This document shows, piece after piece, positions 26,591 to 53,300 of a DNA stretch of 64,000 bases. The notes under the pieces were generated by a model that did not search any database, had not been told where the DNA came from, and was given only the letters and a program-made list of their open reading frames with translations. Location of the stretch: the NCBI GenBank assembly GCA_965231125.1, contig OZ246414.1:827239-891238 (forward strand), in the 5' to 3' direction. Position 1 is the first letter of the stretch. Each line of letters opens with the position of its first letter. Origin of the DNA: an uncultured Gammaproteobacteria bacterium. Lineage in GTDB: Bacteria > Patescibacteriota > Microgenomatia > Woykebacterales > RBG-16-39-9b. The position numbers and the translations under genes are program-made.

Positions 26591-26607
26591 GTCTCTACTA
26601 CCTCCTT

Positions 26608-27888: not shown

Positions 27889-27983
27889 TGTGATCTCCTC
27901 CTTCTTAAATATGAAAATTGGAATGTGCTAGTTTATCGGCTGGATAATAACAAATGGCGGCGAAAAAAACAATGTTATGGGAC

Positions 27984-29615
27984 TTACATCCTCTCCGGAG
28001 CGGAGATGCCGAGGAGGGAAAGAGTGTTTCGCAGTACTATTTTTGTTGCTAATATTAGATTTAGCCTGGCTTTTGTAAGATTGTCGTCTTCGGAGATGAC
28101 GCGGTGTTTTTCGTAAAACTTGTGGAGAAGATCGGCAATTTCAATTGAGTAAGTTGTTAGGTGCTGCACGGCAAAACTTTTCGAAATTTCTTCAACCAGC
28201 TCCGGAAGTTTCAAAATCCTCTTTCCCAAAGCAAGTTCCTCTTTCTCTTTTAGCAAAGAAAGATCCGCCCCGCTAAACTTTTCCTGGGTAAAACCCTGCT
28301 CTTCTCCTTTTTTTAAAATATTAGCGCAGCGGGCATGGGCGTATTGGACATAATAGACTGGGTTCACTTCGTTTTTTTGTTTGGCAAGTTCCAGATCAAA
28401 GTCTATGTGAGTGTTTGGTGAATGCGAAAGAAGAAAAAAGCGAAAAGCATCTTTTCCAACTTCATCCAACACCTCACGAGCCGTAACATAATTGCCGGCT
28501 CTTTTAGACATTTTTACTATCTCAGAACCTCTCTTAACCCTAACGTACTGATACAAAATTATTTTTAATCGGCTGACATCAAAACCTAAAGCTCTTGCCA
28601 GAGCCTGGATTTTTGGAACGTGGCCAAAAGTGTTACTGCCGAAAACATCGATTATCAACTCATACCCGCTCTCAAATTTTTCTTTATGATAGGCGACGTC
28701 AGAAGCAAAATATGTGTATGAACCATCGCTCTTAACGACAACCGCGTCTTTATCTTTCAAAAATTCCTTGTCGGCCGCAAACCACACCGCACCTTCGTGC
28801 TTTTTCAAGAGCTTCTGTGAATCAAGCTGCCCAAGGACTGCCGGTAATTTTTCTTGCAACTTACTCTCATGAACCACAAGGTCAAATTTAATTCCCATAG
28901 AGCCGGCATCATCCATTATGTCTTTAAATAAGTTTTGGACTCCGGCTTCGCCGGCTTTCTCGATTATCTGCTTTTTGGAAAGATCTTTTGTATTTCCCAA
29001 TTTTCCCTTAATCTTTTTAGCAAGCTCGGCTGTATATTCTCCCTTGTAACTAAGGTCTTCTTCATTTTCTTTGATAAACCCGGCCAAAGTGGCCAACGTT
29101 TTACCCAAATCTTTAACTTGGTTCCCTGTGTCATTATCGATATACTCTCTAAGTACCTTAAAACCTGTACTTTCTAGTACACTTGCTAGGGCGTCGCCTA
29201 AAGGTCCTCCGCGCGCGTTACCTATATGCAGCGGACCGGTTGGGTTTGCCGAAATGAATTCGACCCGAGCCTTTTTACCCTGATTAATTTCTATTTGACC
29301 AAAGGTTTTATCTCCTTCGATAATTTTTTGGATATTGCTCTGGATCAAACTTGATTGAACGTAAAAGTTTATAAAGCCTGGATTGGCAAATTCGACTTTG
29401 GAAAACTCTGGAATTTTTTGTAGTCTAGGTACAAGTACTTTAGCAATATCTGCTGGTGTCTGCGAGGCAGTGAAGCTAGAAAGTCTCAATGGCGCATTTG
29501 TCGAATAATCGCCGAAAGCGGCGGACGGTGGTTCGGAGACATCAAAATCAACTTTTGGCAGATTCTCTTTTTGCGTCGCTGTTACAATTTGTTCGGCTAT
29601 AAATTGCTTAATCAT
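27984..29615 (-). CDS. argS: Arginine--tRNA ligase
   Basis: ANPTGPLHIGNARG (HIGH region) and KMSKRAGN (KMSKS). Confidence 0.9.
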   Translation of the reverse strand: MIKQFIAEQIVTATQKENLPKVDFDVSEPPSAAFGDYSTNAPLRLSSFTASQTPADIAKVLVPRLQKIPEFSKVEFANPGFINFYVQSSLIQSNIQKIIEGDKTFGQIEINQGKKARVEFISANPTGPLHIGNARGGPLGDALASVLESTGFKVLREYIDNDTGNQVKDLGKTLATLAGFIKENEEDLSYKGEYTAELAKKIKGKLGNTKDLSKKQIIEKAGEAGVQNLFKDIMDDAGSMGIKFDLVVHESKLQEKLPAVLGQLDSQKLLKKHEGAVWFAADKEFLKDKDAVVVKSDGSYTYFASDVAYHKEKFESGYELIIDVFGSNTFGHVPKIQALARALGFDVSRLKIILYQYVRVKRGSEIVKMSKRAGNYVTAREVLDEVGKDAFRFFLLSHSPNTHIDFDLELAKQKNEVNPVYYVQYAHARCANILKKGEEQGFTQEKFSGADLSLLKEKEELALGKRILKLPELVEEISKSFAVQHLTTYSIEIADLLHKFYEKHRVISEDDNLTKARLNLILATKIVLRNTLSLLGISAPERM

Positions 29616-35758: not shown

Positions 35759-38700
35759 ATGCCTACCTCTCTGCCCAAAGAGAATAAGTTAGTACCAATT
35801 GGTGAAGCCGCCGATTTCCTTGGTGTTTCAATTGACACCCTGCGTCGCTGGGACCGCTCTGGTAAACTTCACTCGCACCGCCCCGACAGTAAGAACCGTC
35901 ATTTTTATTTTAATGAGCTAGAACAAATAAAGTTCTCCCAACCGTTCTCGATATCAGAGGCCGCAGCCCGCCTTGGCATCTCCCCCACCACTCTAAGAAG
36001 GCTTGAGAAAAAAGGTTTAGTTACACCAGAAAGGAATAAAAACAGTGAAAGGCTCTACTCGCATGAGTCACTAGAAAAGCTAACCAATTCTCCTCAACTT
36101 CTTCGCCACAATCCTCCTGAAGAAAAAATTATAAGACCATTGGAAAACACAGCGGTCTTACTAAGTAAACAACCGTCAAAGTCGAAGATAAAACCAGAAG
36201 CTTTAGTTGACACTATTGTTGAAACACGAGAAAAAGTTTTAGAGAACTGGGAGAGGGTTCTTGAAGAAAAAGAAAAGGTCATAGAACTTGAGGAAAAGGA
36301 ATTCGAAACAAGAAAAAATCTTAATGCTATTAATAGGGCCAAAAGCCGTTTGTTGCGGTCATTGGCATCGATAGTTCTACTTTTAATAATTACTATCTCA
36401 GCTATCACCACTGCTTATCTTATCAGCCCTGAATCCACGGCTAAATTCTTTGGCTATTACAATCCTCGTAGCTTTCAAAATCAGTCTAGTAAGCCCGCAA
36501 CTTCTTTGGTTGGACAGCGCAGTGGAGAGATCTTGGGAATCCACTATCCAACTAATCTGCCTGCAACATCAAACCCGTTGTCTGACTTACTTAAGCCCCT
36601 AAGCAATGTATCTTTGGCTATCGTTTACCTAGTCAACCGTGAAACTTACAACAAAGTAGTTCCTGCGAAAGTACTAGCAGACGTAAATGAAGCCTTTACA
36701 ATTGATGAGGGAGGAAATCTTGCGCCACTTTACACTATCCGACTTCCCGAGAGTAGTTATCTCGAAGTTCCGGATAAAGGGCTCATCAGCAATCTTAACG
36801 CCGATTATTTACGCGGTAAGGTGCCTGGTAATGAAGAGGGTAACCTAGTTATTTTTGGCGAGGGTGGCTCAGTCGCCAATTTGAAAGTAGATGAGACGAA
36901 CCTTAAGAATGGCTCTGTAAAGGGCGGCCCTGGCGGGGTAATTGCTGACAACACAATCACGGCAAATGATCTAGCACCAGGCATTTCTTTAGGAGGTGGT
37001 GGAAGTGGTGATGTAACGGGAGTTATTGCTGGTGACGGCTTAATCGGCGGCGGAAGCTCCGGAAGCGTAACATTGAATATTGAGGTGGGTAACGGATTAC
37101 AAGTTTCGGCTGATCAACTTAATCTCGATGTGAATACAACCGGAACGACTTCAACTACTTTTGCGAATTCTGGACTGGAAACTAGCAGTAATGGTCTGTC
37201 ATTGCTAAAAGGTTGTGCTGATAACCAAATCTTAAAGTGGGACGCTGGGGCAGTCAGATGGCAATGTGAAGCAGATTCAGGTGGAGGCGGCGGAGGAAGT
37301 ATTGATATTGAAGAAGGTGATGCGACGATAACTTCTGGCGCTGGGTTCCTAGATTTTTTGGCGTCTGACTTTAATGTATCAGACTCGCCTGCTGGCGAGG
37401 CTAATGTCTCTATTGATTATGCAAATAGCGATATAACAAGAAACGACGTGGCCGAAACGATTACTGGAGGTTGGACTTTTAACACAATCCCAACTACCTT
37501 CACTACCGCCATCGATGTTAACTCCGCTTCAACAATCGCTGGGTTAACAGTTGACGGGTCCGGTACATTCACAGCGAACAATGCCGCTACTTTCCTTGGG
37601 AATATTACTGCTAATGACGCTTCGGCGGATACGATACTTATTGGTCAAAACGGTGCCACCGATGACACGGTCACCATCGCTGGCAATATCTCTCTGACTG
37701 ATGATCAGTGGTCTATTTCAGCAACTGGGGTAGCTAGTGGTCTATCCGGAACAAATACTAGTTTAACAGCTGGGGACCTTTCCTGCGCAAATTGTATTGG
37801 TGGTACTGAGATTGATGAATCTACTTTTGGCGCTCTAACTGCCACTTCGCTAACTTCCACTGGGACTCTAGATGTTTCAGGTGTAGCTACCTTTACTGGA
37901 AATATAACGGCAAACGACGCTTCGGCGGATACTATTTTGATTGGGCAATCAGGAGCTACAGACGATACAGTCACGATTGCCGGCAACATTTCCCTTACTG
38001 ATGACCAATGGTCCATTTCGGCTACTGGCGCGGCAAGTGGGCTTTCAGGCACTAACACTGGACTAACTGCTGGTGATCTTTCCTGTACTAATTGTATTGG
38101 CCCAACTGAAATATCCGATTTAACACTAACCGCTGATACTACTGGTGATTATGTGGCCACTATCACTGCTGGTGGCGGACTGACAGGTGATGCAAGCGGT
38201 GAAGGGTCAACACCAACTTTGGCGGTAGGTACTGGCTCTGGAATTACTGTCAATGCCGACGATGTGGCAGTAAACCAGAACTTCTCCTTTGCCTGGACAG
38301 CCGATCATACTTGGACGTTAGCTGGCGCCGAAGATTTGGCTATCAGTCATGACGGTACTGGCGGGGCGGTTGATATTGTGAACATTTCGGCTACTCCCTC
38401 CTCAAGCGCTGGGGCTATGAATGGTCTAGTTATCACTCAAGCTAATTCGGCGAACACTAATCCCCTTGATGCTGGGTTGCGGATCAACAATGCTGATACT
38501 AATCTAGCTATACCAGCGGCAATTCAGATAGCTAACACAGGCGGTGGTGGCTACACTACCATTATAGATAATGCGGGTACTTTGATTTCTGGTACCGAAC
38601 TTAATGTCCTGGACTCTGGAATTGATGAGTCTGAAGTAACCGGTGATATTGAAGCTGTAACAGCCGGTTCAGGACTAACTGGAGGCGGAGCCGCTGACTC

Positions 38701-41700
38701 AGTCACCCTAAATATTGGAGCCGGAGACGGTATTACTGTTAATGCTGACTCCATACAAGTAAGACTGGATACTACTGCCGCTGATGGAGCAACTACTTCC
38801 TCTGTCTCTGGTATGGAGTTTGTGGGTGGAGAACTATCTCTGATCCGGGGCTGTGCTGCCGGCGGCATCCTTGAATGGGATAATGTCGCCTTTGAGTGGG
38901 ATTGTGGTGTTGATGATACTGGAGGAGGTGGGGCTAATAGTTTCGAAACCATCAATGCCCCAGCTGGGACTGACCCAGTGGCTGACTCTGCTACTGACAC
39001 CCTTAACCTGACCGTGACTGAGGCTAACTTAACCATTACTGGTAACTCTGGAACAGATACTCTTGACTTTGATATATCCGAGGCTACCCTAGCCGGAGCA
39101 GGACTCGCCGCCAACGGTGATGCACTGGACGTAGGGGCTGGAGACGGGATTAGCGTGGCCGCCGACTCGGTAGCTGTAAGGCTAGATACTACTGCAGCCG
39201 ATGGGGCGACTACTTCATCGGTCTCTGGTATGGAGTTTGCGGGAGGTGAATTATCTTTAATTAGAGGCTGTGCCGCTGGTGGAATACTGGAATGGGATAA
39301 CGTAGCCTTTGAGTGGGACTGTGGGGTAGATGACACTGGCGGTGGTGGGGCGAACTCCTTCGAGACCATCAACGCTCCAGCTGGGACTGACCCGGTCGCC
39401 GATTCCGCTACTGACACTCTTAACCTGACCGTGACTGGGGCTAACCTGACCATTACCGGAACTGCGGGTACTGATACCCTTGACTTTGATATATCCGAGG
39501 CAACTCTTGCCGGGGCAGGCCTCACCGCCAACGGGGACGCCCTGGACGTGGGTGCCGGGACCGGAATAACCGTTAACGCTAATGACGTGGCCGTCAACAC
39601 TGGGGCGGCCTTTGCCTGGACTGGTCTCCACTCCTGGACTAACACTCTCACTAATGATAGTAGTAGTCAGGATATTAACCTTACTCTTGGTGCCGACGCG
39701 GATGCCGATATCATTTCCGGCCTTAATATTGACGTCACTTCCGCCGCGACGGGAGACGCCGATCTGCTTTACGGGATAAATATAGGGAACGTGACCTCTG
39801 CTGATGGGACGGTTGTGGAGACTGCCCTGCGTATTGGTGAAGACTGGGAGAACGCGGTGGAAGTAGAAGGGTCAACTAACGACGCCGTCGAGACTTACCT
39901 GGTCTTTACGGATCCGACGGTTTCCGATAAAACGATTACCTTCCCTAACGAGACCGGCACGGTTTGTACCACGGGTAGTGTCTGTTCTGGTTACCAAGCC
40001 TCAGGCTCTTTTGTGCCTACCACGCGAACCTTGACCGCCGGTGACGGACTTTCCGGTGGCGGCGATCTCTCCGCCGACCGTTCCTTTGCGGTTAACACTG
40101 CTTCGGGTATAACCACCTCGGCTGACAACGTGGTTCTGGACCTTACTTACGCGGCCGCCTGGACTGGTCTCCACTCCTGGACTAACACTCTCACTAATGA
40201 TAGTAGTAGTCAGGATATTAACCTTACTCTTGGTGCCGACGCGGATGCCGATATCATTTCCGGCCTTAATATTGACGTCACTTCCGCCGCGACGGGAGAC
40301 GCCGATCTGCTTTACGGGATAAATATAGGGAACGTGACCTCTGCTGATGGGACGGTTGTGGAGACTGCCCTGCGTATTGGTGAAGACTGGGAGAACGCGG
40401 TGGAAGTAGAAGGGTCAACTAACGACGCCGTCGAGACTTACCTGGTCTTTACGGATCCGACGGTTTCCGATAAAACGATTACCATACCCAACCGCTCTGG
40501 TACAGTCTCCCTCTCTGGAGATACCTTTACGGGAGACGTGACTGGTACCTTAAATAGTAGTGGAGCCACTGCTTTAACTGTCGCTAGTGACGCTGTTGCT
40601 CTAACGACTGATACTACTGGTGATTATGTATCCTCAGCTACTGCAAGCGGTGGGCTTACTCTAACTGGCACCGAAGGTGCATCACTAGGTATTGACCTGT
40701 CTAGTGGAGACGGTGCTGGTGGCACATCCAGCGGTTCAGGCCTAGAATTAGACGCCAACGGAGTCGGACTACTACAAGGTTGTGGTATTAACGAGATTCT
40801 TAAATGGAATGATGGTGCTTCCACTTGGGGTTGTGCCACGGATGTCTCCGGTGGTACTCCTTCCCTAGATACTATCAGTGCCGCACTCGCCAATGGAAGT
40901 GCTCAAGATTCTAATGCTTTTACCATTAACTGGAACTGGGATTTTCAAGCTGCCGCCGTTGACTCCGGTCTTAATATCTCGGAATCATCAAATTCGACGC
41001 TCGGCACCCAAGACCAACAGGCCCTGGTTGAGATAACAACCCTTGCCAACTCCACTGCCTCACCTTTGCAAGTCACCGCTGGCGGGACTGCTGCCGGTGA
41101 TGTCTGGTTCGATTTAAGCGGCACTTCAGATTTTGAAATCCGCGATGCTGGGACCGCATTTGCCATTTTCAAAAATGATTCGACTACTGACTGGGTTTTA
41201 CCAGCTGCTGGTGACATTGCGATTGACGCGGCGACGACCGACACCACCACCACCGCTGGCGTTTTGGATCTTAACATTGACGCTGGTAACGCTGCTGTTG
41301 ATGGTATCAATATTGACATGGAAGCCGCGGGTGCTATTACTGCGGGTACTGACATTACAGCTTTGGAAATTCTCCTAACCGCAACTGACACCGATGCTGA
41401 TCTATTTGGTATTACCATAGACACTCATGCTACGGCAGGTATTGCTAGTTCATATGATGCTGGCATTAAGATTAACAATCAAGATGACACCGGCGGATCC
41501 ATGCTAGATGGAATTATTATTACAGCCAATACCGATACCGCTATCACCGACGGTCTTGATGTATCGGATGCGGAAATTGTGAATGCTATTAACATTGGTG
41601 GAAATGCCATTGCCGGAACAAACTTTGCTGTCAGTGCTGCTGGCGCCATCACCGCCGCGACAGGCATCACCTCCTCTGGAACAATCACACTTTCCGGTCT

Positions 41701-43504
41701 TGTCAGCTGTGCTGGAATAAAGACGGACGGCTCTGGTGTCTTGAGTTGTAATGCTGCGGTACCAAAATCCCTGGCTGGTACTTGGACCGAAGTTAATACC
41801 GCTGCTAGCCAAACCGATGGAAATATGGATCGAGTCGTGTCTTCCATCCTTCCTGCTGGCGCCAGTCAGGTTAACTCGATCAGGATGCCGTTTGCTGGTT
41901 CTGTCCGGGGTATTTCGGTATCCCTTTCGGCTGCCAGAAGTGCTGACACATTGACTGTTACTGCTTTCGTAAACGGTGCAAGTGTAGGTTTCACCTGCTT
42001 GATTGACGGAACTAACACTCAACGCAACCAGTGCTCTCAAGCTACCGGGCTTGATACCTTTGTTGCCGGTGATACCCTTGAGGCAAAATATAGCACTGGC
42101 GCAAGCTTTGCACCGACTACAGCAGAAATCGAGGTCGAGCTGTGGGTTGACTGGTCAGGAGCAGATGTCGCCGAGATGTACCAGACGAACGATTTTAGCG
42201 TAGAAGCCGGCCACCTAGTCAGCATTGATCCCCAAATCGCTGTCGGAGTCAAGAAGAGCGAGGGAGCGTATGACAAAAATATCGTTGGCGTGATCTCCAC
42301 CGCCGCCGGCTTGACATTAAACGAAGGACTTAATAGTCCAGGCAATGAGGTAAAAGTGGCTTTGGCAGGCCAGGCGCCGGTTTATGTGACCACCGAGAAC
42401 GGGCCTATTAGCGCGGGCGACTACATTACCTCCTCCTCCATCCCGGGAATTGCCATGAAGGCCACCAAAGCAGGGCCCGTAGTCGGTAGGGCCATGACTA
42501 ACTTTGATGGCGATAGAGTGGGTTGGGTGGTTGTCTTTGTCAGCCCCGGGTACTATAACGGTACAAATTTGGCCGGTCTTTTGCCTGATTTAACTACCGA
42601 ATCTAGCTCGCCCGAAAGTTCGACAAGCTCACCACAAGATTTTGGTAAGCAAATCCTAGGTCAACTGCTTACTCAGAAAGATCAACTTACTACTTCAGTC
42701 AATTTCTCGGAAATATTCACTGACCGTCTTGCTGCTGGTCTTGAGATTATTACTCCAAAAATTACCGCCGAAGAGCTGGCGCTTACTGGTAAATTTACCA
42801 TGGTAGATGAAACTGGAAAAGAGACGGTTAGTGTTGACTCCGCCGGCAACGCCTTCTTTGCCGGCACCATTACGGCGGATAAGATTAAAGCAAACCAAAT
42901 TGAAGGTCTGGAAATTATAACTGATAAAATAACCAGCCTTTCGGATAAGTTAGCCAAAATTAGCAGTGCACCTAGTGAAGTGCTACCTTCGGGAGAGGCA
43001 ACCGAAAGCGCATCTAGTATAACGGCTGTAAGTGCCGATAATTCACAAGATCTGGGTAATATAAATGTAGAGTCTGCTAAGGTGGCTCTAGATATGTCTG
43101 TCTTGGGCAATCTGGAGGCTCAAGGAGGATTAGTTGTTGGTGGCCCAGCGGAGTTTAAAGGTGAGTCAGTATTTGAGAAGCTGGCCACATTTGTCGGCAA
43201 CGTAATCTTCCGCGGTGACGTCCAGTTTCTGGGACGGCCAACCTTTAATAAAGACACAGCCGGAACTGCAGTGGTAAAGGCTGGTGATACAGAAGTTGAA
43301 GTCCAATTTGAGCGGGAGTATGAAAACCCACCAGTCGTTACTGCCAGCTTAAACCTATCAGAGGATACCGCAAGTCAAGTACTTACCAGTGCACCCTCTT
43401 ATGGAGTAATATCGGCAACAACTAAAGGATTCAAAATACGTCTTGCTGCTGCGGCGACAAGTGACCTGCAGTTTTCTTGGATGGCAATCTCTGTAAAGCA
43501 GTGA
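35759..43504 (+). CDS. Giant (2581 aa) membrane protein. It has two N-terminal cytoplasmic MerR/excisionase-type HTH domains, a charged coiled region, one TM helix and a >2300-aa Gly/Thr/Asp/Ala-rich repetitive extracellular region. It ends in a conserved C-terminal domain.
   Basis: HTH1 IGEAADFLGVSIDTLRRWDRSGKL. HTH2 ISEAAARLGISPTTLRRLEKKGLV...ERLYSHESL. TM LLRSLASIVLLLIITISAITTAYLI. Recurrent GC..G.ILKW...W.C..D.GGGG motifs. Internal tandem repeats. Confidence 0.8.
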   Translation: MPTSLPKENKLVPIGEAADFLGVSIDTLRRWDRSGKLHSHRPDSKNRHFYFNELEQIKFSQPFSISEAAARLGISPTTLRRLEKKGLVTPERNKNSERLYSHESLEKLTNSPQLLRHNPPEEKIIRPLENTAVLLSKQPSKSKIKPEALVDTIVETREKVLENWERVLEEKEKVIELEEKEFETRKNLNAINRAKSRLLRSLASIVLLLIITISAITTAYLISPESTAKFFGYYNPRSFQNQSSKPATSLVGQRSGEILGIHYPTNLPATSNPLSDLLKPLSNVSLAIVYLVNRETYNKVVPAKVLADVNEAFTIDEGGNLAPLYTIRLPESSYLEVPDKGLISNLNADYLRGKVPGNEEGNLVIFGEGGSVANLKVDETNLKNGSVKGGPGGVIADNTITANDLAPGISLGGGGSGDVTGVIAGDGLIGGGSSGSVTLNIEVGNGLQVSADQLNLDVNTTGTTSTTFANSGLETSSNGLSLLKGCADNQILKWDAGAVRWQCEADSGGGGGGSIDIEEGDATITSGAGFLDFLASDFNVSDSPAGEANVSIDYANSDITRNDVAETITGGWTFNTIPTTFTTAIDVNSASTIAGLTVDGSGTFTANNAATFLGNITANDASADTILIGQNGATDDTVTIAGNISLTDDQWSISATGVASGLSGTNTSLTAGDLSCANCIGGTEIDESTFGALTATSLTSTGTLDVSGVATFTGNITANDASADTILIGQSGATDDTVTIAGNISLTDDQWSISATGAASGLSGTNTGLTAGDLSCTNCIGPTEISDLTLTADTTGDYVATITAGGGLTGDASGEGSTPTLAVGTGSGITVNADDVAVNQNFSFAWTADHTWTLAGAEDLAISHDGTGGAVDIVNISATPSSSAGAMNGLVITQANSANTNPLDAGLRINNADTNLAIPAAIQIANTGGGGYTTIIDNAGTLISGTELNVLDSGIDESEVTGDIEAVTAGSGLTGGGAADSVTLNIGAGDGITVNADSIQVRLDTTAADGATTSSVSGMEFVGGELSLIRGCAAGGILEWDNVAFEWDCGVDDTGGGGANSFETINAPAGTDPVADSATDTLNLTVTEANLTITGNSGTDTLDFDISEATLAGAGLAANGDALDVGAGDGISVAADSVAVRLDTTAADGATTSSVSGMEFAGGELSLIRGCAAGGILEWDNVAFEWDCGVDDTGGGGANSFETINAPAGTDPVADSATDTLNLTVTGANLTITGTAGTDTLDFDISEATLAGAGLTANGDALDVGAGTGITVNANDVAVNTGAAFAWTGLHSWTNTLTNDSSSQDINLTLGADADADIISGLNIDVTSAATGDADLLYGINIGNVTSADGTVVETALRIGEDWENAVEVEGSTNDAVETYLVFTDPTVSDKTITFPNETGTVCTTGSVCSGYQASGSFVPTTRTLTAGDGLSGGGDLSADRSFAVNTASGITTSADNVVLDLTYAAAWTGLHSWTNTLTNDSSSQDINLTLGADADADIISGLNIDVTSAATGDADLLYGINIGNVTSADGTVVETALRIGEDWENAVEVEGSTNDAVETYLVFTDPTVSDKTITIPNRSGTVSLSGDTFTGDVTGTLNSSGATALTVASDAVALTTDTTGDYVSSATASGGLTLTGTEGASLGIDLSSGDGAGGTSSGSGLELDANGVGLLQGCGINEILKWNDGASTWGCATDVSGGTPSLDTISAALANGSAQDSNAFTINWNWDFQAAAVDSGLNISESSNSTLGTQDQQALVEITTLANSTASPLQVTAGGTAAGDVWFDLSGTSDFEIRDAGTAFAIFKNDSTTDWVLPAAGDIAIDAATTDTTTTAGVLDLNIDAGNAAVDGINIDMEAAGAITAGTDITALEILLTATDTDADLFGITIDTHATAGIASSYDAGIKINNQDDTGGSMLDGIIITANTDTAITDGLDVSDAEIVNAINIGGNAIAGTNFAVSAAGAITAATGITSSGTITLSGLVSCAGIKTDGSGVLSCNAAVPKSLAGTWTEVNTAASQTDGNMDRVVSSILPAGASQVNSIRMPFAGSVRGISVSLSAARSADTLTVTAFVNGASVGFTCLIDGTNTQRNQCSQATGLDTFVAGDTLEAKYSTGASFAPTTAEIEVELWVDWSGADVAEMYQTNDFSVEAGHLVSIDPQIAVGVKKSEGAYDKNIVGVISTAAGLTLNEGLNSPGNEVKVALAGQAPVYVTTENGPISAGDYITSSSIPGIAMKATKAGPVVGRAMTNFDGDRVGWVVVFVSPGYYNGTNLAGLLPDLTTESSSPESSTSSPQDFGKQILGQLLTQKDQLTTSVNFSEIFTDRLAAGLEIITPKITAEELALTGKFTMVDETGKETVSVDSAGNAFFAGTITADKIKANQIEGLEIITDKITSLSDKLAKISSAPSEVLPSGEATESASSITAVSADNSQDLGNINVESAKVALDMSVLGNLEAQGGLVVGGPAEFKGESVFEKLATFVGNVIFRGDVQFLGRPTFNKDTAGTAVVKAGDTEVEVQFEREYENPPVVTASLNLSEDTASQVLTSAPSYGVISATTKGFKIRLAAAATSDLQFSWMAISVKQ
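39614..40495 (+). repeat. Exact ~339-bp direct repeat (39614-39952 and 40157-40495) inside giant gene 1, alongside older diverged tandem repeats (37598-38110; 38716-39555).
   Basis: The two copies read identically base for base (gcctggactggtctccactcctggactaacactctcactaatgatagtagtagtcagg ... aaaacgattacc). Confidence 0.75.
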
Positions 43505-44066: not shown

Positions 44067-44345
44067 CTAGACCCCTAGGAAAACTCTCACAACATTACCG
44101 CTTACTTCCAAAATACCTCCGCCGAAGTTATAAGTAAACTTATTGCCAGATTCTGGTGTAATTGAGATTTTATTTTTTATCAAACTGATTAAATTCGCGT
44201 GCATCGGCAAGACATCCAAAGCCCCCAGATCGTTTTCCGTGCTAACAGAAAAAGCTCTTCCGTGAAAATCCGGATCTTTACTGAAAGAATGCCACATGAT
44301 GTGAATTTCCAGTTGATTTTTGCTACCTAAAGATGGGTTAGACAT
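44067..44345 (-). CDS. atpC: F-type ATP synthase epsilon subunit (short; beta-sandwich domain only)
   Basis: Position after atpD, and epsilon-like N-domain sequence. Confidence 0.6.
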   Translation of the reverse strand: MSNPSLGSKNQLEIHIMWHSFSKDPDFHGRAFSVSTENDLGALDVLPMHANLISLIKNKISITPESGNKFTYNFGGGILEVSGNVVRVFLGV

Positions 44346-44366
44346 CGTAGAACTGGTTTGAATATG

Positions 44367-46605
<2,239 letters not shown>

Positions 46606-46648
46606 GCTGGCAAAAACTCAAATTTTAAAACTAAAATTTCAAATTAGT

Positions 46649-48181
46649 TTAAATAGTTGAACTTTGGATTTTGACATTTGGATTTTCAATAGCAACACCA
46701 TCTTTCCGCGGAGGGCTCGAGTAAAGTGCATTTTCGATATTACCTTGTATCTGACCAACCAGGTATTTTAGGTTCTCCAAATTTGAGGCCTCTAAAACTT
46801 TGGAAACTACATCCCCCAGCATAGAGTTGTTGTAAGCCTTGACTATTTTTTCCCTTTCAACGCGAACTTGCTCGATGGGTTTGGAAACCCAAAAATCATT
46901 TAAAAGTAGGCCAAAAATCACTAGGGCAAGCGGTTTAGGAATTAAGGTGTCGCTTTCCTGATAAAAAATAGCTTCCAATCTCTCCCCTATGTTCAGATCG
47001 GAACGTGTCTGCAAGGGCAGGTCAAAACCAAAATGAGCTATTTCAAGGGCCTTACGATAGCGACTAAGCTTGTCAGCCAGAGTTTTTCTAATTTCTTTCT
47101 CTAGCAGAGTTTGAGTCTGATTGCCAACTCTTGTAACTGACAAAGGAGTGTTTATTGCCGGCCGGTGCCCCTTTTTAAACTCATCATGATCAAAAAACAG
47201 GTGACCGTCTGTCATAGCCATGACATTCGTCGGCAAAAATCCAGTCAGATCCCCTTGCACAGTCTCAATAATTGGGAAGGCAGTTATACTTTTGGAACGA
47301 TGGTCCTTTTTGAAATTACCAGCTCTCTCAATAAGCTTGGCATGAACATTAAATATATCTCCAGGATAAGACTCTCTAGACGGCATCCTTTTTGAAATAA
47401 GCGATATTTCTCGGTAAAATTTAGCGTGGGTTGTTAAATCATCGAGAATAATTACCACTTCGTTTCCCTGATCTCGGAAAAACTCGGCAACTGTAAACCC
47501 CGTAAAGGGCGCAAGAAAAACCAGTGAAGCTGGGTCGGCCGAGCTGGTAAAAATTATGACGCTTCGTTTCATCACGCCCATTTTTCTAAAATAGTCTTCA
47601 ACAAACTTAACATCAGTCTTTTTCTTACCGATTGCTACATAGATACAAATCGCTCCTTTTAGAACTTGAGAGGTGGCCGTTTGTAACAAAAAAGTAGTTC
47701 TTCCTGTTTTCTGATCTCCGATTACAAGCTCCCTTTGACCTTTACCCAAAGGTATTAAGAAATCTACTAAGCTGACGCCAGATTCTAATTGCTCATTTAC
47801 CCTAACTCTTTCCCTTATACCTGGAGCGTCTCGATGCAACGGAAGTGAAACCTTATACCCACCGACAGGAGGAAGACCATCTACCGGCTCCAGGAACGGG
47901 TCTACAACTCTACCTAAAAGCTCGGTGGAAACCGGTACTTTAACAATATCGTTCGTTCTAGTTACTCTAGTGCCTGGTATAATTCTTTTTGATGACAGTA
48001 TTAAAATCTCAATAAGATCTTTCTCGATATCTTGAACCAGGCCCTTTTCTCCATCTTCCGTTATAACTAATTCATTCGGACGAGCCTTAGGCAGTCCCGA
48101 AACATAAATTACGGATTGAAATATAGATTCAACTTGACCAATTTCACCAGATTCTTGCAAATATTCATCAAAACTTTTCAT
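46649..48181 (-). CDS. atpA: F-type ATP synthase alpha subunit. Start trimmed to MKSFDEYLQ; the ORF is open to 48304.
   Basis: GDQKTGRTTF P-loop and the alpha-subunit ILDDLTTHAKFYREISL region. Confidence 0.9.
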   Translation of the reverse strand: MKSFDEYLQESGEIGQVESIFQSVIYVSGLPKARPNELVITEDGEKGLVQDIEKDLIEILILSSKRIIPGTRVTRTNDIVKVPVSTELLGRVVDPFLEPVDGLPPVGGYKVSLPLHRDAPGIRERVRVNEQLESGVSLVDFLIPLGKGQRELVIGDQKTGRTTFLLQTATSQVLKGAICIYVAIGKKKTDVKFVEDYFRKMGVMKRSVIIFTSSADPASLVFLAPFTGFTVAEFFRDQGNEVVIILDDLTTHAKFYREISLISKRMPSRESYPGDIFNVHAKLIERAGNFKKDHRSKSITAFPIIETVQGDLTGFLPTNVMAMTDGHLFFDHDEFKKGHRPAINTPLSVTRVGNQTQTLLEKEIRKTLADKLSRYRKALEIAHFGFDLPLQTRSDLNIGERLEAIFYQESDTLIPKPLALVIFGLLLNDFWVSKPIEQVRVEREKIVKAYNNSMLGDVVSKVLEASNLENLKYLVGQIQGNIENALYSSPPRKDGVAIENPNVKIQSSTI

Positions 48182-48638
48182 GGGCAAACCTTTCTTTAAG
48201 CGCTTCCTGAAGTTTGGTTGCGTAAGAATAATCCTTATATTTGCCTTGATAATCAATGGTAAGTCCGGCCACCAAAGAAGGCTTGACAAAAATGTCCAGC
48301 ACAATTTTATGATCCGCGCCAGCGTTTATAAATTCTGAAATCTCGTTGAGTAATTCCCTCCCTGGTCTAAAAGCCAGCCCAAGGCTAGCTTTAGGTAGCT
48401 TTAATAAATACTCCTTCAAGCCTGTGAGATACTCGAGACGCTTTTCTTTTGATCTGGGCATATATTCCTCAATCTCTTTAAGAAAGCCAGTCTCTAAATC
48501 ACTTTCCACTTCCTTATTCAAACCAGCCTTATTTATCTCGTAATACCGCGTCTCCAACTCGCTTATATCATCCAATAACTGGTATAAGTCTTCGGTAGTT
48601 ATGATTTCTTGGGCAATCTTTTCGTAATCTTTTTCCAT
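48168..48638 (-). CDS. atpH: F-type ATP synthase delta (OSCP) subunit
   Basis: Position between b and alpha. OSCP-like C-terminus (VKPSLVAGLTIDYQGKYKDYSYATKLQ). Confidence 0.65.
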   Translation of the reverse strand: MEKDYEKIAQEIITTEDLYQLLDDISELETRYYEINKAGLNKEVESDLETGFLKEIEEYMPRSKEKRLEYLTGLKEYLLKLPKASLGLAFRPGRELLNEISEFINAGADHKIVLDIFVKPSLVAGLTIDYQGKYKDYSYATKLQEALKERFAHEKF

Positions 48639-48649
48639 AGTTCTTATTT

Positions 48650-49324
48650 TCAGAACATTTGTTCGGCTTTGGCTTTTTCTAAAGCTTTCATAACTAATTC
48701 TTGGTGCTTAGCTAAATCGATAGAGGCGCCAAGCGTTTCGGAAGCAACTTGGGAAATCACTGAAAATGTTTTTTCAGAAAGTGTTTGCTCTATTTCGCTC
48801 TTTCGCAAACGTAACTCCTCCATCAGTTTGTTTTTCTCCTGATCTGGAAACTTGACTATCTCCTCACTAAGCTGCCTCATAAGATATTGCACAGAAGACT
48901 TCGCTTGATCCGCTATCTTAATGTACTCGGAGTTCTGAAGACCCTTCATTTCCTCCAAGCTAATTTTATAAGAATTCGTTATGTCTTTTATTACATTTTG
49001 AAATACTTCGAGCTCTTTTGATATTGTTTCGTAAACTAATTTCTTTGCTTGTTCGTCCAGCTCGGCTCTTGTGTGATTGGCCATATCTTCAACGCCTTCC
49101 AAATCTTTAAGAGTTTCTTTTACAGAAGATTCCGACTCGCTCAACGCAGTTTCTAATATCTTCTTTTCCTTATCGGTTGCTTGGGAGCGTATATCTTGGA
49201 GGGATTTAAAAAACCATTTGGCGTCAAAAAGCTTTATTTGATTCTGATAGAAGATGAATATGGCAACCAATACGATTAGGTTTGTTATTAAAGAAGCTAT
49301 TAACAAAATTTGACTAGTTTCCAT
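48650..49324 (-). CDS. atpF: F-type ATP synthase subunit b
   Basis: Single N-terminal TM followed by a long charged coiled coil. Operon position. Confidence 0.7.
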   Translation of the reverse strand: METSQILLIASLITNLIVLVAIFIFYQNQIKLFDAKWFFKSLQDIRSQATDKEKKILETALSESESSVKETLKDLEGVEDMANHTRAELDEQAKKLVYETISKELEVFQNVIKDITNSYKISLEEMKGLQNSEYIKIADQAKSSVQYLMRQLSEEIVKFPDQEKNKLMEELRLRKSEIEQTLSEKTFSVISQVASETLGASIDLAKHQELVMKALEKAKAEQMF

Positions 49325-49336
49325 AAGCTTTTTGTA

Positions 49337-50161
49337 TTAGTAAAAAATTATGACCAGCGAAAGTCCTAGTCCAGCAACGGCCAAAAACACAATTGCTCCG
49401 AGATTCAAGAACATACTTGAAAAGATTGTTCCTTTAGCCAATGGGTTTCGACCTATGGCAACAATACTTGTGCGCAGCGCCCGAGCGGCAAAAATAAAAC
49501 CTAAGATAAAAGAAGCGCTCCCCACTACAAATGCGAAGAGATAGCGTATAAAAAACTCGAGTCCGCGCGGCTGCGAAAGAGTCTCTGAGGTTACCGCTGT
49601 AATTTTATCAAGTACATTTTTTAAATTTGCCGCGCCAATCCTATTTTGGTACTGAATATTAATGAAAACCGGTATGGTACCTACCCCTTCACCACTGTAA
49701 GAAGCTGATGCTTTACCAATAACCATACCTTCATGGGTTGCCTTTTCCCCAACCCCAGCTTGGTCCGACGAAGTTATGAAATCCCCAACCTCAATATTTC
49801 CGGCTGCTGCCGAAACCCTCACTTCGGCTTCCCCTTGAGAAATAACTGGTACAGTAGTTTTTGTTTGAACATTAAGTACTGCCGCTGGGTCCTGGACCGC
49901 TACGCCAAATATGTTTTGGTCGTACTCACCGGTAGATCTAACTATTTTGCTGTCGGTTGTTAAAGATAGTATATCCCCGGGTTGGATATTTTTGTCATCG
50001 ACTTCAAAGTTTTTAGCAATTTGCCCACCGGTTAAAACTTGCGCGAAAACAAAAGAATGGTTAAGACGCAGGGACGCGACCAGAACAAGACTTATTAGAC
50101 TAACAAACTTGACTCCACTAGTTAATTCAGGCAGGTTATTTAGCTTCAATCGGGCAAACAT
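49337..50161 (-). CDS. Fusion protein: signal peptide, then the extracytoplasmic domain shared with both giant proteins, then a C-terminal F-ATPase c-subunit-like helical hairpin that lacks the conserved carboxylate.
   Basis: The C-terminus LRTSIVAIGRNPLAKGTIFSSMFLNLGAIVFLAVAGLGLSLVIIFY aligns with c-subunit SRTIEGIARQPE...[22 protein letters not shown]. A Val/Asn sits at the Glu/Asp position. The gene occupies the atpE position of the operon. Confidence 0.55.
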   Translation of the reverse strand: MFARLKLNNLPELTSGVKFVSLISLVLVASLRLNHSFVFAQVLTGGQIAKNFEVDDKNIQPGDILSLTTDSKIVRSTGEYDQNIFGVAVQDPAAVLNVQTKTTVPVISQGEAEVRVSAAAGNIEVGDFITSSDQAGVGEKATHEGMVIGKASASYSGEGVGTIPVFINIQYQNRIGAANLKNVLDKITAVTSETLSQPRGLEFFIRYLFAFVVGSASFILGFIFAARALRTSIVAIGRNPLAKGTIFSSMFLNLGAIVFLAVAGLGLSLVIIFY

Positions 50162-50268
50162 TGCTCCCCTGTCACGGGAAATGTGCTCCTTAAAATTATA
50201 AATCTCACATTTCCTCTATCTATATGTTACTAAAATTTACTCAATCTTTAAAATCCTACCTGTAGAAA

Positions 50269-50297
50269 CTTGACAATCAGCCACAACTGTCTCATAA
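50269..50297 (+). promoter_or_regulatory. Consensus promoter (TTGACA-17-CATAAT) for giant gene 2
   Basis: cttgacaatcagccacaactgtctcataat read directly. Confidence 0.5.
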
Positions 50298-50367
50298 TTT
50301 TAATTAGAATTTCCCGTAACGAGAAACTTTTCTCCTTAAGGGAAAGTCTAATTAACTAACCCTGCCC

Positions 50368-53300
50368 ATGGGAACCGAAAATAGTCTAAAAGCCGAATCT
50401 TTACCAAAGGCGGAAGAGAACCAAAAACTTTTACCATATCCCGAAGTCATAAAGCTTGCTAAACAAGCTGGTGTTGATTTTGGGAAAGGCTACCCCTACA
50501 ATAGGCTGCGCTACTACACAAAGATAGGTTTGCTACCCAAAGCCCACCGCCGCTCTTTCGGAGGTCCAGCTGAAGGATGCTACCCATCTTGGGTTGTTGA
50601 CAAATTAATTGAAATCGACAGGCAGCTTAAACAAGGCCAATCAGTCCAATCAATCCTTAGACAAAAGTCGAGTACACCATCATTAACCAATGCTTTATCG
50701 CCCGCTCCCATCTCTTTATACGAAAACCGAAAAATAGCTAACCAAGAGGATTTCGCCCAGTCTACAGATTTCGGGATTGGTGAGCAGTCGACCTACACTG
50801 AAAGTTCAGCAGGTGCTCTCGACTTCATCAGACGTGGAGCTTTATATCTTGGTTTGATGTCAATAATTTTCGTCTCTGGACTCGCAACTGTTTACGAAAT
50901 GCCGCAGAGTCATGACAATGTTCAAAGCCTAGTGAACATTGCAAAAAATAAGTTTTTTGGAACTTATTCACCGAAAAATCTGATCGCTCTCCCAAACCAA
51001 ATCGGAAGTGTGCTGGGACGCACCACCGCCCCTTATTTCAAAGTAAACGTTCCGACCGAAATTACCCATCTGCTCAGTGCCTTTGGTGGAATCAAAACAA
51101 ACGGCGCCAATGCGAATTTAGGGAAAGGTAAACTAACCGCCTCAAACGTTATTTACGATGTCCTTCCTGGCACTAATGTCAGCATCTCTTCTGGTCAAAA
51201 GCCGACCATTTCCGTTTCTGGACTAATCGGATCGGTAAATGGAACTGCCGGAAGAATTACTTCTTCGGGTGGGGACAATCCAACAATTGATATTGCCAGC
51301 AACTATACTGGCCAGACTTCAATCGATACTGTCGGAACAATAGGGAGCGGCGTGTGGCACGGATCCCCCCTTACCGATCCTTATGTTTCCAACAACATTA
51401 CTGTTTCAAACTATTTGCCCCTCTCCGGAGGAACTTTAACCGGTTCTTTGACCTTAAACAACAATGATGGTGGTAGCGGCGATGTTAACTTAATCCTTGG
51501 AGATTCCAACGAATCGGGAGACATAGTTCTTAATAACAGTGGCTTTACTGGCGCTATAACTTCTGGAGCGCTAACTGCGGCAAGAGTCTGGACTCTACCA
51601 AACGAGACCGGCACCATTTGCACCACTACAAGCGGTTGTGGAGCCGCTGGAGTTTTATTCGATATCGCTGCTGATGCTGGTGCAAATCAAAGCGTTACCG
51701 CCGGAGACACCGTTACTCTTACCGGTGGGGCGGGAATCAGTACTTCGGTTGCTGCTGGACCGACGGCAACTTTTGATGTAAATACTGGTAACGGGGTTCA
51801 GATATCGGCAGATGCGGTTGCTTTAGGTCCGTTGACAGCCGATTGGGACCAAACTGGAGCCTTCAATATCTACCTAGACAACGCGGGCAGCAACCTACAG
51901 ATCAGAGAAAACGGTGGCGGAGCCGACAAAGGCATTTTTGATGTTGCCTCGATTGCTGGCGACCAAACTTACACTTTTACAACCGGCGGCACAGTTTGGA
52001 CTTCCGGAAATGATGGCTCCGGTTCTACCTTAGATGCTGATACTCTTGATTCATTGGATTCTTCTCAATTTCTTAGGTCGGATACTTCGGACAGCTTCAC
52101 CTCCGGAACCTTAACCTTTGACAATGGGACTACTCTAACAGTAAATGGGGTCGCCAATATTGGGGATGGTGGGGATGCGGTTGCAATTTCTGGCACGACA
52201 GTCTCGGTAACCGCCAATGGGGCCGGTAATGATATAACTTTGAATTTGGTTGACAACAACACCGATGCCCTAGACATTAAACAGGGCGCTGATAACTATA
52301 TCAATATAAATACTACCAATACAACAGAAAATATCTCGTTCGGTAACGCTGCCACTAACCCCACCTACTCTTTTCTGGGAAGTGGTACAGCTACTTTCTC
52401 TGGAGCAACTACAGTCACTGGTACCCTAACCGCTAACGGCTCCTTTGTAGCCAACAACACCTTCACCTTAGGAGATGGTGGGGACACTGGATCAATCAAC
52501 ACTTCGGATTGGGCCGTGTCAACAACTGGAGACATGACTGGGATTGGAAGTATTGGGGCTGACGGGGATATAACCACTTCCCAAGCGACCCCGTCTGTCT
52601 TTTTGACGGACACAACCGCGGCTTCGGATGATTATTCAATTAACGCTGACGCTAGTACTTTTACCATCCGTAACGAGACAGATGCCAGGGACGATGTCAG
52701 CATTGATGGGTCTGGAAATGTAACTCTAAATTCGGTGGGATCCTTTGGAAACGGCACCTGGTCTTTCTCTTCGGCTGGAGCACTTTCCGGTGTAACCACC
52801 ATCTCAACTTCTTCAACGATAACTTTAGGCGCTCTTGGGGCGACGGATACCACCACTTTGCTTTGTCGTAACTCTGGAAATGTGATTGCCGGTTGTAACA
52901 GCGGTTCTGGTTCTGGACAGGATGCGGATCTTTTGGACGGTCTAGATTCTTCACAATTCCTAAGAAGTGACACTTCGGATAACTTTACCTCTGGTACTTT
53001 AACTACAGATGCTGGAACCACCTTGGCAGTTGCCGGAGATTTAACCATTGCTGATAATAATATTCCTCTGACTGGTGGAGACACTACGATTGACTTGAAC
53101 GCGGCGGCTACGAGAACTTTAACTATTACTAACTCAAATGGCGCGAATGTTGCTAACTTATCTGTCGAAGGCACTGCCACAGCTGCCGATTTCTCCTGTA
53201 GCGATTGTATCGCTTTAACGACTGAAACCTCCGGTGACTATGTTGCCAATGTCGACACGAGTGTATTAACAGGACTAACTGGAGGTTCGGCAGGTTCGGA

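Follow-up and report, generated by a model that had tools for sequence, protein, structure and literature searches.

A gp12-like phage chaperone domain shared by two giant proteins and a c-subunit-like fusion protein of an ATPase operon in a Patescibacteria genome

Analysis of a 64,000-nucleotide stretch of contig OZ246414.1 (GenBank assembly GCA_965231125.1, positions 827,239 to 891,238 of the forward strand; referred to here as the window), placed by GTDB in the Woykebacterales (Patescibacteriota), revealed one domain in three proteins: two giant proteins, giant 1 and giant 2, and a 274-amino-acid (aa) protein encoded at the head of an ATPase operon. The domain is, with high probability, an all-beta module of about 150 residues that is homologous to the C-terminal intramolecular chaperone of phage tail fibres and tailspikes such as the bacteriophage phi29 pre-neck appendage protein gp12 and that shares the fold of trimeric phage capsid cement proteins. 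The findings as a whole are probably best explained by a chaperone module of the gp12 type that would cleave itself in the giants and would stay uncleaved in the 274-aa protein, where it is fused to a hairpin resembling the ATPase c subunit. The genes for giant surface proteins belong to the most poorly understood ones of the Candidate Phyla Radiation (CPR)/Patescibacteria, and a phage-type chaperone domain offers a testable model of their maturation that specifies trimeric fibres, the sites of cleavage, and particular mutants.

Three copies of the domain, their family, and their fold

When all six reading frames of the whole window were translated and scanned with a profile built from the shared region, exactly three copies of the domain and no fourth were detected (bit scores are those of the hidden Markov model [HMM] envelopes).

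nt 42134-42592, + strand: shared domain of giant 1, aa 2126-2278, 227 bits
nt 56557-57048, + strand: shared domain of giant 2, aa 2064-2227, 206 bits
nt 49610-50050, - strand: shared domain of the 274-aa protein, aa 38-184, 194 bits, predicted to be extracytoplasmic

BLASTP comparison revealed 41% identity between the copies of giant 1 and giant 2 (E 9e-34), and the copy of the 274-aa protein was 33% identical to that of giant 1 (E 4e-19) and 31% identical to that of giant 2 (E 3e-16). These values and the three profile matches confirm the proposal of an initial annotation of this DNA that one domain is common to all three proteins; chance or compositional similarity is ruled out by the E values and the size of the family. 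The third copy had been placed at positions 49460 to 49900, which is shifted by about 150 nt toward the 3' end: this span encodes aa 88 to 234, misses the first third of the domain, and includes the linker helix and the first membrane helix. The train of motifs described for the domain is kept in part in the third copy, where [AG]E, ENGP, and AMKAT are replaced by AK, AAGN, and GEKAT, respectively; the first of these replacements proved to be biologically relevant. Similarity between the genes of giant 1 and giant 2 was absent at the DNA level (blastn), and the copies are therefore old paralogues and not recent duplications. A recent intragenomic duplication is ruled out by this result; it is also countered by the closer orthologues that the copies of giant 2 and of the 274-aa protein each have in other genomes.

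An exhaustive HMM search of 1.84 billion cluster representatives identified 27,826 representatives with the domain at an E value of ≤1e-3 and 22,472 at ≤1e-10. Such a search was needed to reveal the family: a word-indexed protein search with the giant 1 domain returned only two relatives, and a word-indexed search with a profile of 38 sequences (A3) scored only short fragments, all of them without names. In the top 150 matches, which are proteins of 485 to 5,766 aa, the domain lies up to about 600 residues (mostly 100 to 450) from the C terminus and usually occurs in two copies. Every source name seen for members of the family was "hypothetical protein," the Pfam matches were weak or partial, and the domain had no matching model in NCBIfam. 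This family of about 28,000 protein clusters is named by no curated library.

Comparison of profile A3 with the PDB sequences revealed one family only, phi29 gp12 (E 2.2e-4); a profile of three sequences gave no match to PDB sequences, and the 38-sequence profile was required. In Pfam, the giant 1 copy matched Peptidase_G2 (PF11962), the "IMC autoproteolytic cleavage domain," with an E value of 0.007 and 16.2 bits (cut-off, 25) over about positions 46 to 100 of the 228 profile positions, and the copies of giant 2 and the 274-aa protein did not match this model. Two homologues, P0010 (37.1 bits) and P0017 (25.2 bits), exceeded the cut-off, only over positions 12 to 105. Phage_cement_2 was matched by the giant 2 copy (E 0.024, 15.4 bits) and by the isolated domain of the 274-aa protein (24.6 bits, with a cut-off of 24; the whole protein reached only 22.5 bits). 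The latter copy also scored 24.4 bits with XM1_gp53 (PF23982; cut-off, 27), for which precomputed matches are present on three of its orthologues. Neither of these two models was matched by the giant 1 copy. The PHROG matches of the copies were to tail-fibre and pre-neck-appendage families, with the tail-fibre family phrog_19602 for giant 1 (E 1.7e-6) and phrog_6427 for giant 2 (E 6.7e-6); a PHROG scan of the full-length giants revealed a helix-turn-helix (HTH) and one weak tail-fibre match and nothing further.

The closest annotated relative is gp359 of the Pseudomonas jumbo phage PA5oct (tblastn, 31% identity over 84% of the domain, E 8e-8). This fibre-like virion protein of 478 aa is encoded beside a tail-fibre gene and carries the shared domain, including the sequence ADLAERY, at its extreme C terminus. 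Unlike the giants, it lacks a membrane anchor, an HTH, and any residues beyond the domain.

Structural models were generated with AlphaFold2. The predicted local distance difference test score (pLDDT) was 75.6 for the giant 1 domain and 87 for the whole 274-aa protein, with about 96 for its beta domain. Foldseek searches with the giant 1 model retrieved 3gqh_A and 3suc, both from gp12, together with trimeric cement or decoration proteins from Borrelia phage BB1, cyanophage Pam3, HFTV1, XM1, and Sf11 and the base of the phi29 head fibre (E 1e-4 to 1e-3). The 274-aa model retrieved 8hdt_G, 9ocb_H, 8pkh, and 3suc (E 1.6e-4 to 7.7e-4). Common to both models were 3gqh_A, 3suc, and the cement proteins of BB1, Pam3, and XM1; the HFTV1 capsid chains were matched by the giant 1 model only and the TW1 capsid stabilising protein by the 274-aa model only. 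The top matches (8pkh, 8hdt_G, 9ocb, 8qsy, 7kmx_a, and 5wk1_K) have the cement-protein fold, and the fold of the released C-terminal fragment of gp12 was recovered with a template-modelling score (TM-score) of 0.55 and an E value of 6e-4.

These results bear on the initial annotation, which could assign the domain to no known family. By sequence and fold, it is a distant member of the superfamily that comprises phi29 gp12 Peptidase_G2 and the cement proteins. Because the Pfam score fell short and only a quarter of the model was matched, and because the motif described below (in the giants) and the fold were both found, the domain is filed as a divergent, unmodelled branch of the PF11962 superfamily and not as a member of the Pfam family itself. 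The suggestion that it might be an assembly domain gains support from this homology, since the relatives known so far serve the trimerisation and folding of phage fibres and capsids. The Foldseek comparison proposed in the initial annotation thus led to the C-terminal fragment of gp12 and to phage cement proteins. It did not lead to a common fold with an unrelated function, because the function of the matched fold, assembly, is related.

The cement proteins (PF09956, Phage_cement_2, formerly DUF2190; PF23982, XM1 gp53) were compared by means of structures 8PKH, 8HDT_G, 7KMX_a, and 5WK1_K and the phi29 gp8.5 base (6QYY). They are the best structural matches of the domain (E about 1e-4), agree with it in size and all-beta architecture, and are linked to the 274-aa copy by its borderline Pfam match. 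They differ from it in context: the window is part of a cellular chromosome without capsid context, and the domain resides in giants or in a fusion with a membrane hairpin. In addition, the giants have a cleavage motif for which no need is known in cement proteins.

The D-x-A-E motif and the predicted self-cleavage of the giants

Alignment of profile A3 with gp12 revealed that the near-invariant D-x-A-E of the family falls on the gp12 maturation site, which lies between S691 and D692 of S691-D692-F-A-E695. The corresponding positions in the window are as follows.

nt 42164-42175, + strand: D2136-V-A-E2139 of giant 1, aligned to D692-F-A-E695 of gp12; predicted cut between A2135 and D2136, just 5' of nt 42164
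nt 56593-56604, + strand: D2076-Y-A-E2079 of giant 2, in the same column as D692/E695 of gp12; predicted cut between G2075 and D2076
nt 50012-50023, - strand: Q47-I-A-K50 of the 274-aa protein, a degenerate counterpart of D-x-A-E with both acidic residues gone

The gp12 fragment in 3GQH (163 residues of a protein of 854) starts exactly at D692, and the "pre-mature" gp12 entry 3SUC reads D-F-A-Q, with Gln in place of E695. Since one structure begins at the Asp and the other carries the Gln, the D-x-A-E column corresponds to the maturation site of the gp12 chaperone domain. Trimer folding depends on this domain, which is removed by cleavage and is missing from virions (PMC9863714; PMC3357383). 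Among the domain copies of the top 150 large proteins, the Asp and the Glu are both kept in 266 of 282 (94%). The acidic pair is kept in none of the 32 orthologues of the 274-aa protein in which the motif position was readable (38 examined). The motif is thus near invariant in the large proteins and yet dispensable for the fold in the family fused to the c-like hairpin, and it behaves like a set of catalytic residues. From this pattern, self-cleavage is predicted at both sites in the giants; it is not predicted in the 274-aa protein, as both acidic residues are lost there. The cleavage prediction is based on homology to one characterised protein. We lean slightly toward the view that the copies in the giants nucleate trimers and cleave themselves.

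The resemblance to gp12 (PF11962; 3GQH, 3SUC, and 6QZ9) comprises the homologous N-terminal third with D-x-A-E at the maturation site, and a similar overall fold; the passenger that precedes the domain is likewise long and putatively fibrous. Homology would predict a role in trimer folding with subsequent self-removal (PMC9863714, PMC3357383). Unlike gp12, the giants are cellular, membrane-anchored proteins and not virion proteins, 150 to 300 more residues follow their domain, and the domain is often duplicated in their homologues; the copy fused to the c-like hairpin differs from gp12 in that it lacks the catalytic pair. Most of the top-scoring homologues (P0003 to P0152) carry two or three tandem copies. 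In the giant-1-type homologues P0014, P0029, P0032, and P0037, the motif of the second copy is degenerate (DLGE, GIGQ, DIGQ, and EIGQ), and giant 1 of the window has lost this second copy.

The two giants and their end domains are located as follows (open reading frames [ORFs] according to the ORF list and its translations).

35759-43504, + strand: giant 1, 2581 aa
50368-57495, + strand: giant 2, 2375 aa
43295-43489, + strand: H-type-lectin-like end domain of giant 1, aa 2513-2577 (Pfam H_lectin, E 0.003, below cut-off), also present in homologue P0037
57200-57492: small conserved beta end domain of giant 2

Giant 1 begins with two cytoplasmic MerR-type HTH units (aa 15 to 115; Pfam MerR, 78.8 bits; MerR_1, 63.6 bits), which are followed by a hydrophobic membrane helix near aa 197 to 221, an extracellular region of more than 1,900 aa with repeats rich in Thr, Ser, Gly, Ala, and Asn, the shared domain, and a tail of 303 aa. 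Homologues P0014, P0029, and P0032 share this plan. In giant 2, a weakly MerR-like N terminus (MerR, E 0.0028, below cut-off) precedes a membrane helix near aa 158 to 176, a long extracellular region, the shared domain, and a tail of 148 aa; its N- and C-terminal architecture is shared by homologues P0005, P0007, and P0028. Since the giants are anchored through their N termini, the domain lies near the far end of the chain. The C-terminal position given in the initial annotation is accurate in the sense that the copies are near C-terminal, at 83 to 94% of the length, with the 303 and 148 residues following them. The end domains of both giants are small conserved beta domains located downstream of the predicted cuts. 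That of giant 1 terminates in FSWMAISVKQ. That of giant 2 terminates in FDWIVVN, an ending common to P0005, P0006, P0019, and P0023.

In the proposed mechanism, the domain of the giants would fold close to the C-terminal end of the chain, align three chains, and nucleate fibre folding. Self-cleavage directly N-terminal to the conserved Asp of D-x-A-E would follow and would separate the last 446 residues of giant 1 and the last 300 residues of giant 2 from the mature fibre. The copy of the 274-aa protein would instead stay attached, without cleavage, and serve in oligomerisation or docking on the outside of an assembly that resembles a c-ring. This assembly would belong to an F-type ATPase, in whose operon no a subunit was found.

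Several observations weigh against this explanation. All copies of the window score below the Pfam cut-off for Peptidase_G2, and the match obtained covers only positions 46 to 100 of 228. The giant 1 model is of moderate quality (one good model among five), and the TM-scores to 3gqh are moderate as well. D-x-A-E could be a structural cap and not a catalytic pair. Unlike in gp12 and PA5oct gp359, the domain of the giants is not located at the extreme C terminus; the conserved tail of 150 to 300 aa that follows has an end domain of its own, and discarding it seems wasteful. Finally, among the loci described below, some giant-type neighbours are complete and yet lack the domain (e.g., L008, L012, L015, L018, and L019).

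The same evidence has to be weighed for an alternative in which the module acts only in oligomerisation or as "cement" in each of the three proteins, keeping chains together or attaching to an adjacent surface in the manner of phage decoration proteins, with a structural D-x-A-E and nothing cut. Such a module would agree with the best Foldseek matches, which are capsid cement and decoration proteins and not proteases, and with the Pfam results, in which two of the three copies matched Phage_cement_2 and XM1_gp53 best, and the conserved tail after the domain of the giants suggests that the C-terminal part is retained. However, the motif aligns residue for residue with the maturation site of gp12, and conservation in 94% of the copies of large proteins, combined with dispensability for the fold in the c-fused family, is what is expected of catalytic residues. 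We therefore regard a purely structural module as rather unlikely.

A ligand- or host-binding (lectin-like) function in the attachment of episymbionts to their hosts is very improbable. In its favour are the extracellular location of the domain, the plausible role of the giants as adhesins, and the H-type-lectin-like domain close by, but the domain itself matched no carbohydrate-binding family, and its conservation is strongest at glycines and in a G-R-V-P-x-K-V strand that looks buried and does not mark a variable binding surface. Moreover, the domain is subterminal and not distal.

Additional observations were made on the giant genes. Giant 1 contains an internal repeat pair (39614-39940 and 40157-40483) that is 100% identical over 327 nt, and two further pairs, 38759-39149 with 39176-39565 and 37586-37800 with 37886-38100, show 82% and 75% identity. 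The GC content is 0.51 to 0.52 across 38 to 42 kb, compared to about 0.40 to 0.45 in most other 2-kb bins of the window. The repeats and the raised GC content suggest a recent repeat expansion or gene conversion within the fibre region. The HTH and membrane helix at the starts of both giants (35759-36430 and 50368-50900) correspond to the architecture of a membrane-tethered regulator. Upstream of giant 2, an inverted repeat with 27-nt arms (89% complementary) at 50300-50355 ends 12 nt before the start codon and is preceded by a promoter-like sequence, TTGACA-17 nt-CATAAT, at 50271-50299. As RNA, the repeat has a folding energy of -26.3 kcal/mol (z = -5.7 versus shuffles). It may be a regulatory hairpin of the 5' untranslated region or an operator in the divergent intergenic region, which spans 206 bp (50162-50367).

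The 274-aa fusion protein and its ATPase operon

The 274-aa protein and the operon that it heads are composed of the following elements (subunit genes according to the ORF list).

49337-50161, - strand: 274-aa fusion protein with signal peptide, shared domain, linker helix, and c-subunit-like hairpin; first gene of the ATPase operon
50039-50161, - strand: signal-peptide-like N terminus, aa 1-41, ending in FVFAQ; hydrophobic helix at aa 15-32 in the model
49340-49570, - strand: c-subunit-like helical hairpin, aa 198-273, with the loop AIGRNPLA and without the membrane carboxylate
48650-49324, - strand: b-like subunit
48168-48638, - strand: delta-like subunit (delta-family matches below cut-off)
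46649-48304, - strand: alpha subunit
45757-46605, - strand: gamma subunit
44367-45755, - strand: beta subunit
44067-44345, - strand: epsilon subunit

At least 141 full-length orthologues of the 274-aa protein were identified. The shared domain directly follows the signal-peptide-like segment, in agreement with the N-terminal position given in the initial annotation. An "AQ"-type site stands directly before the domain in most of 38 orthologues, and the signal peptide is probably cleaved there.

The C-terminal hairpin had been described as c-subunit-like, and both profile and structure comparisons bear this out. With the profile of the hairpin family (A4), the top seven PDB matches were all F-type c subunits (E 7e-5 to 1.7e-3), and the conserved AIGRNPLA loop aligned with the R-Q-P loop of the c subunit. 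In Foldseek, the hairpin superposed on c subunits over about 70 residues with TM-scores of 0.74 to 0.89 and root mean square deviations of 1.1 to 2.0 Å. The Pfam family ATP-synt_C was reached by 3 of 26 members, the protein of the window not being among these. In the alignment to c subunits, the column of the ion-binding Glu is occupied by V, I, L, or T across the hairpin family, and a conserved Asp or Glu is absent from both helices in the family alignment. The hairpin is thus a genuine homologue of the c subunit that lacks its defining carboxylate. It shares with the F-type c subunit (PF00137) the two-helix architecture, the cytoplasmic R-(Q/N)-P loop, and the position at the head of an atp operon, and it differs in the missing ion-binding Glu/Asp of helix 2; the protein as a whole differs in its N-terminal signal peptide and its extracytoplasmic domain of 140 residues. 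A divergent a subunit was considered and rejected, as the protein has only the signal helix and one hairpin and the hairpin matches c subunits.

The gene of the 274-aa protein is followed by those of b, delta, alpha, gamma, beta, and epsilon (44067-50161, - strand), and the identical order was found in six further contigs with called genes. Orthologous operons carry Pfam calls for ATP-synt_ab, ATP-synt, ATP-synt_DE_N, and OSCP. The fusion protein is the only c-like product of the operon, in which a canonical c subunit was not found. In the window, the Walker A motif is kept in beta (GGAGVGKT), and alpha reads GDQKTGRTT, with Arg where Lys is usual.

The genomic neighbourhood was analysed in a scan of one genome per species with the C-terminal alignment A4; alignment A5 was too variable for finding loci. 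The scan confirmed 186 stretches as relatives, from which 80 loci were kept. These belong to Woykebacteria, Woesebacteria, Daviesbacteria, Amesbacteria, Gottesmanbacteria, Pacebacteria, and WWE3 and include bins labelled Saccharibacteria or Parcubacteria. A single ORF encodes both the domain and the c-like hairpin in each of 86 independent loci. The position of the fusion gene in the operon is likewise kept in 86 of 86, with alpha/beta-type genes following wherever the flank permits. No second c-like ORF was detected within 10 kb in the 86 loci. An ORF with the Arg motif of the a subunit was detected neither within 10 kb on either side in these loci nor in the window, in a crude motif scan of local flanks only, and no ATP-synt_A call was present in seven annotated contexts.

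Co-occurrence, for which the initial annotation had recommended a search, was observed in different CPR lineages, and the fusion gene neighbours giant-type genes in most of the 86 loci, which speaks for a functional link of some kind. A divergent upstream ORF whose N terminus matches the N-terminal region of the giants is present in 62 loci, 57 of these ORFs being at least 500 aa long or cut by the end of the locus, and 12 more loci have a giant-type ORF in another orientation within 10 kb. In the remaining 12 loci no such ORF was detected, and half of them have less than 1.1 kb of upstream sequence. The domain with D-x-A-E is present on complete or nearly complete neighbours in L001, L006, L009, L022, L024, L036, L079, and L083, and the 5,766-aa protein P0005, called beside L004, carries the domain as well; it is missing from some of the shorter neighbours.

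The initial annotation had raised the possibility that the domain links the giant filaments to a membrane partner. In this scenario of homotypic docking, the copy on the c-like hairpin would bind the copies of the giants, e.g., in mixed trimers, and would anchor or assemble the fibres at the ATPase. The copies concerned resemble one another more than they resemble any described family (E 4e-19 and 3e-16), the giant-type genes lie beside the fusion gene in the loci counted above, and many of the complete neighbours carry the D-x-A-E domain; in addition, the C-terminal end of an exported type-II protein would emerge last, near the membrane. Against this, the giants already possess an N-terminal membrane helix of their own, and the self-cleavage motif is found in their copies and not in the membrane copy. 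As some complete giant-type neighbours lack the domain, members of the cluster need not share it. MerR regulators are also classically encoded divergently from the operons that they control, and the synteny could therefore stem from regulation and not from contact. Contact between the membrane copy and the copies of the giants is accordingly judged to be unlikely, and the chaperone module that cleaves itself in the giants only is preferred.

The release of the phi29 gp12 chaperone domain is said to have been found by Xiang and colleagues in 2009 to be ATP dependent. A more far-reaching proposal, to which we attach little probability, is that the cluster encodes a machine derived from a rotary ATPase, in which an F1-like ATPase (alpha, beta, gamma, epsilon, delta, and b) would be coupled to a ring of ion-incompetent c-like hairpins with a crown of phage-type chaperone-like domains outside the cell and, without an a subunit, would drive by means of ATP the assembly, maturation, release, or movement of the giant fibre proteins, whose self-cleaving domain matches that of the crown. 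If the complex moves no ions, a rotary ATPase would have been recruited to a function in surface proteins, and the usual interpretation of an F-type ATPase recorded in metabolic reconstructions of such lineages would have to be revised.

The surprising part of these findings is the association in which a dead copy of the domain is fused to a c subunit that lacks the carboxylate, in an operon in which no a subunit was found and which is conserved beside genes for giant surface proteins across many CPR lineages. Literature searches for an ATPase in CPR that lacks the a subunit or carries a fused c subunit yielded nothing relevant, and the same was true of searches for CPR giants with chaperone domains; no description of this association was found in the literature searched.

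Neighbouring genes and other features of the window

The neighbours in the window include genes for leucyl-tRNA synthetase (LeuRS), ComEA, ComEC, the ATPase subunits, Wzy_C, and Obg, and none for capsid, portal, or terminase proteins. A prophage origin of the region was rejected in view of these housekeeping neighbours.

A gene for a Wzy_C (O-antigen ligase-like) protein with C-terminal tetratricopeptide (TPR) repeats is located directly downstream of giant 2 (57532-59769, + strand), and a Wzy_C gene adjoins the giant in L001 too. With Wzy_C beside the giants, glycosylation or surface attachment of these proteins is possible.

Two further large proteins are predicted to be located at the surface: a 1497-aa subtilase (Peptidase_S8; 8656-13149, - strand) with FG-GAP repeats, fn3, and a CarboxypepD_reg-like domain, and an 826-aa DUF2961 protein (60473-62953, + strand) with a C-terminal dockerin. 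A spike in GC content to 0.53 at 26001-28000, against a background of about 0.44, overlaps an ORF of 426 aa (26608-27888, - strand).

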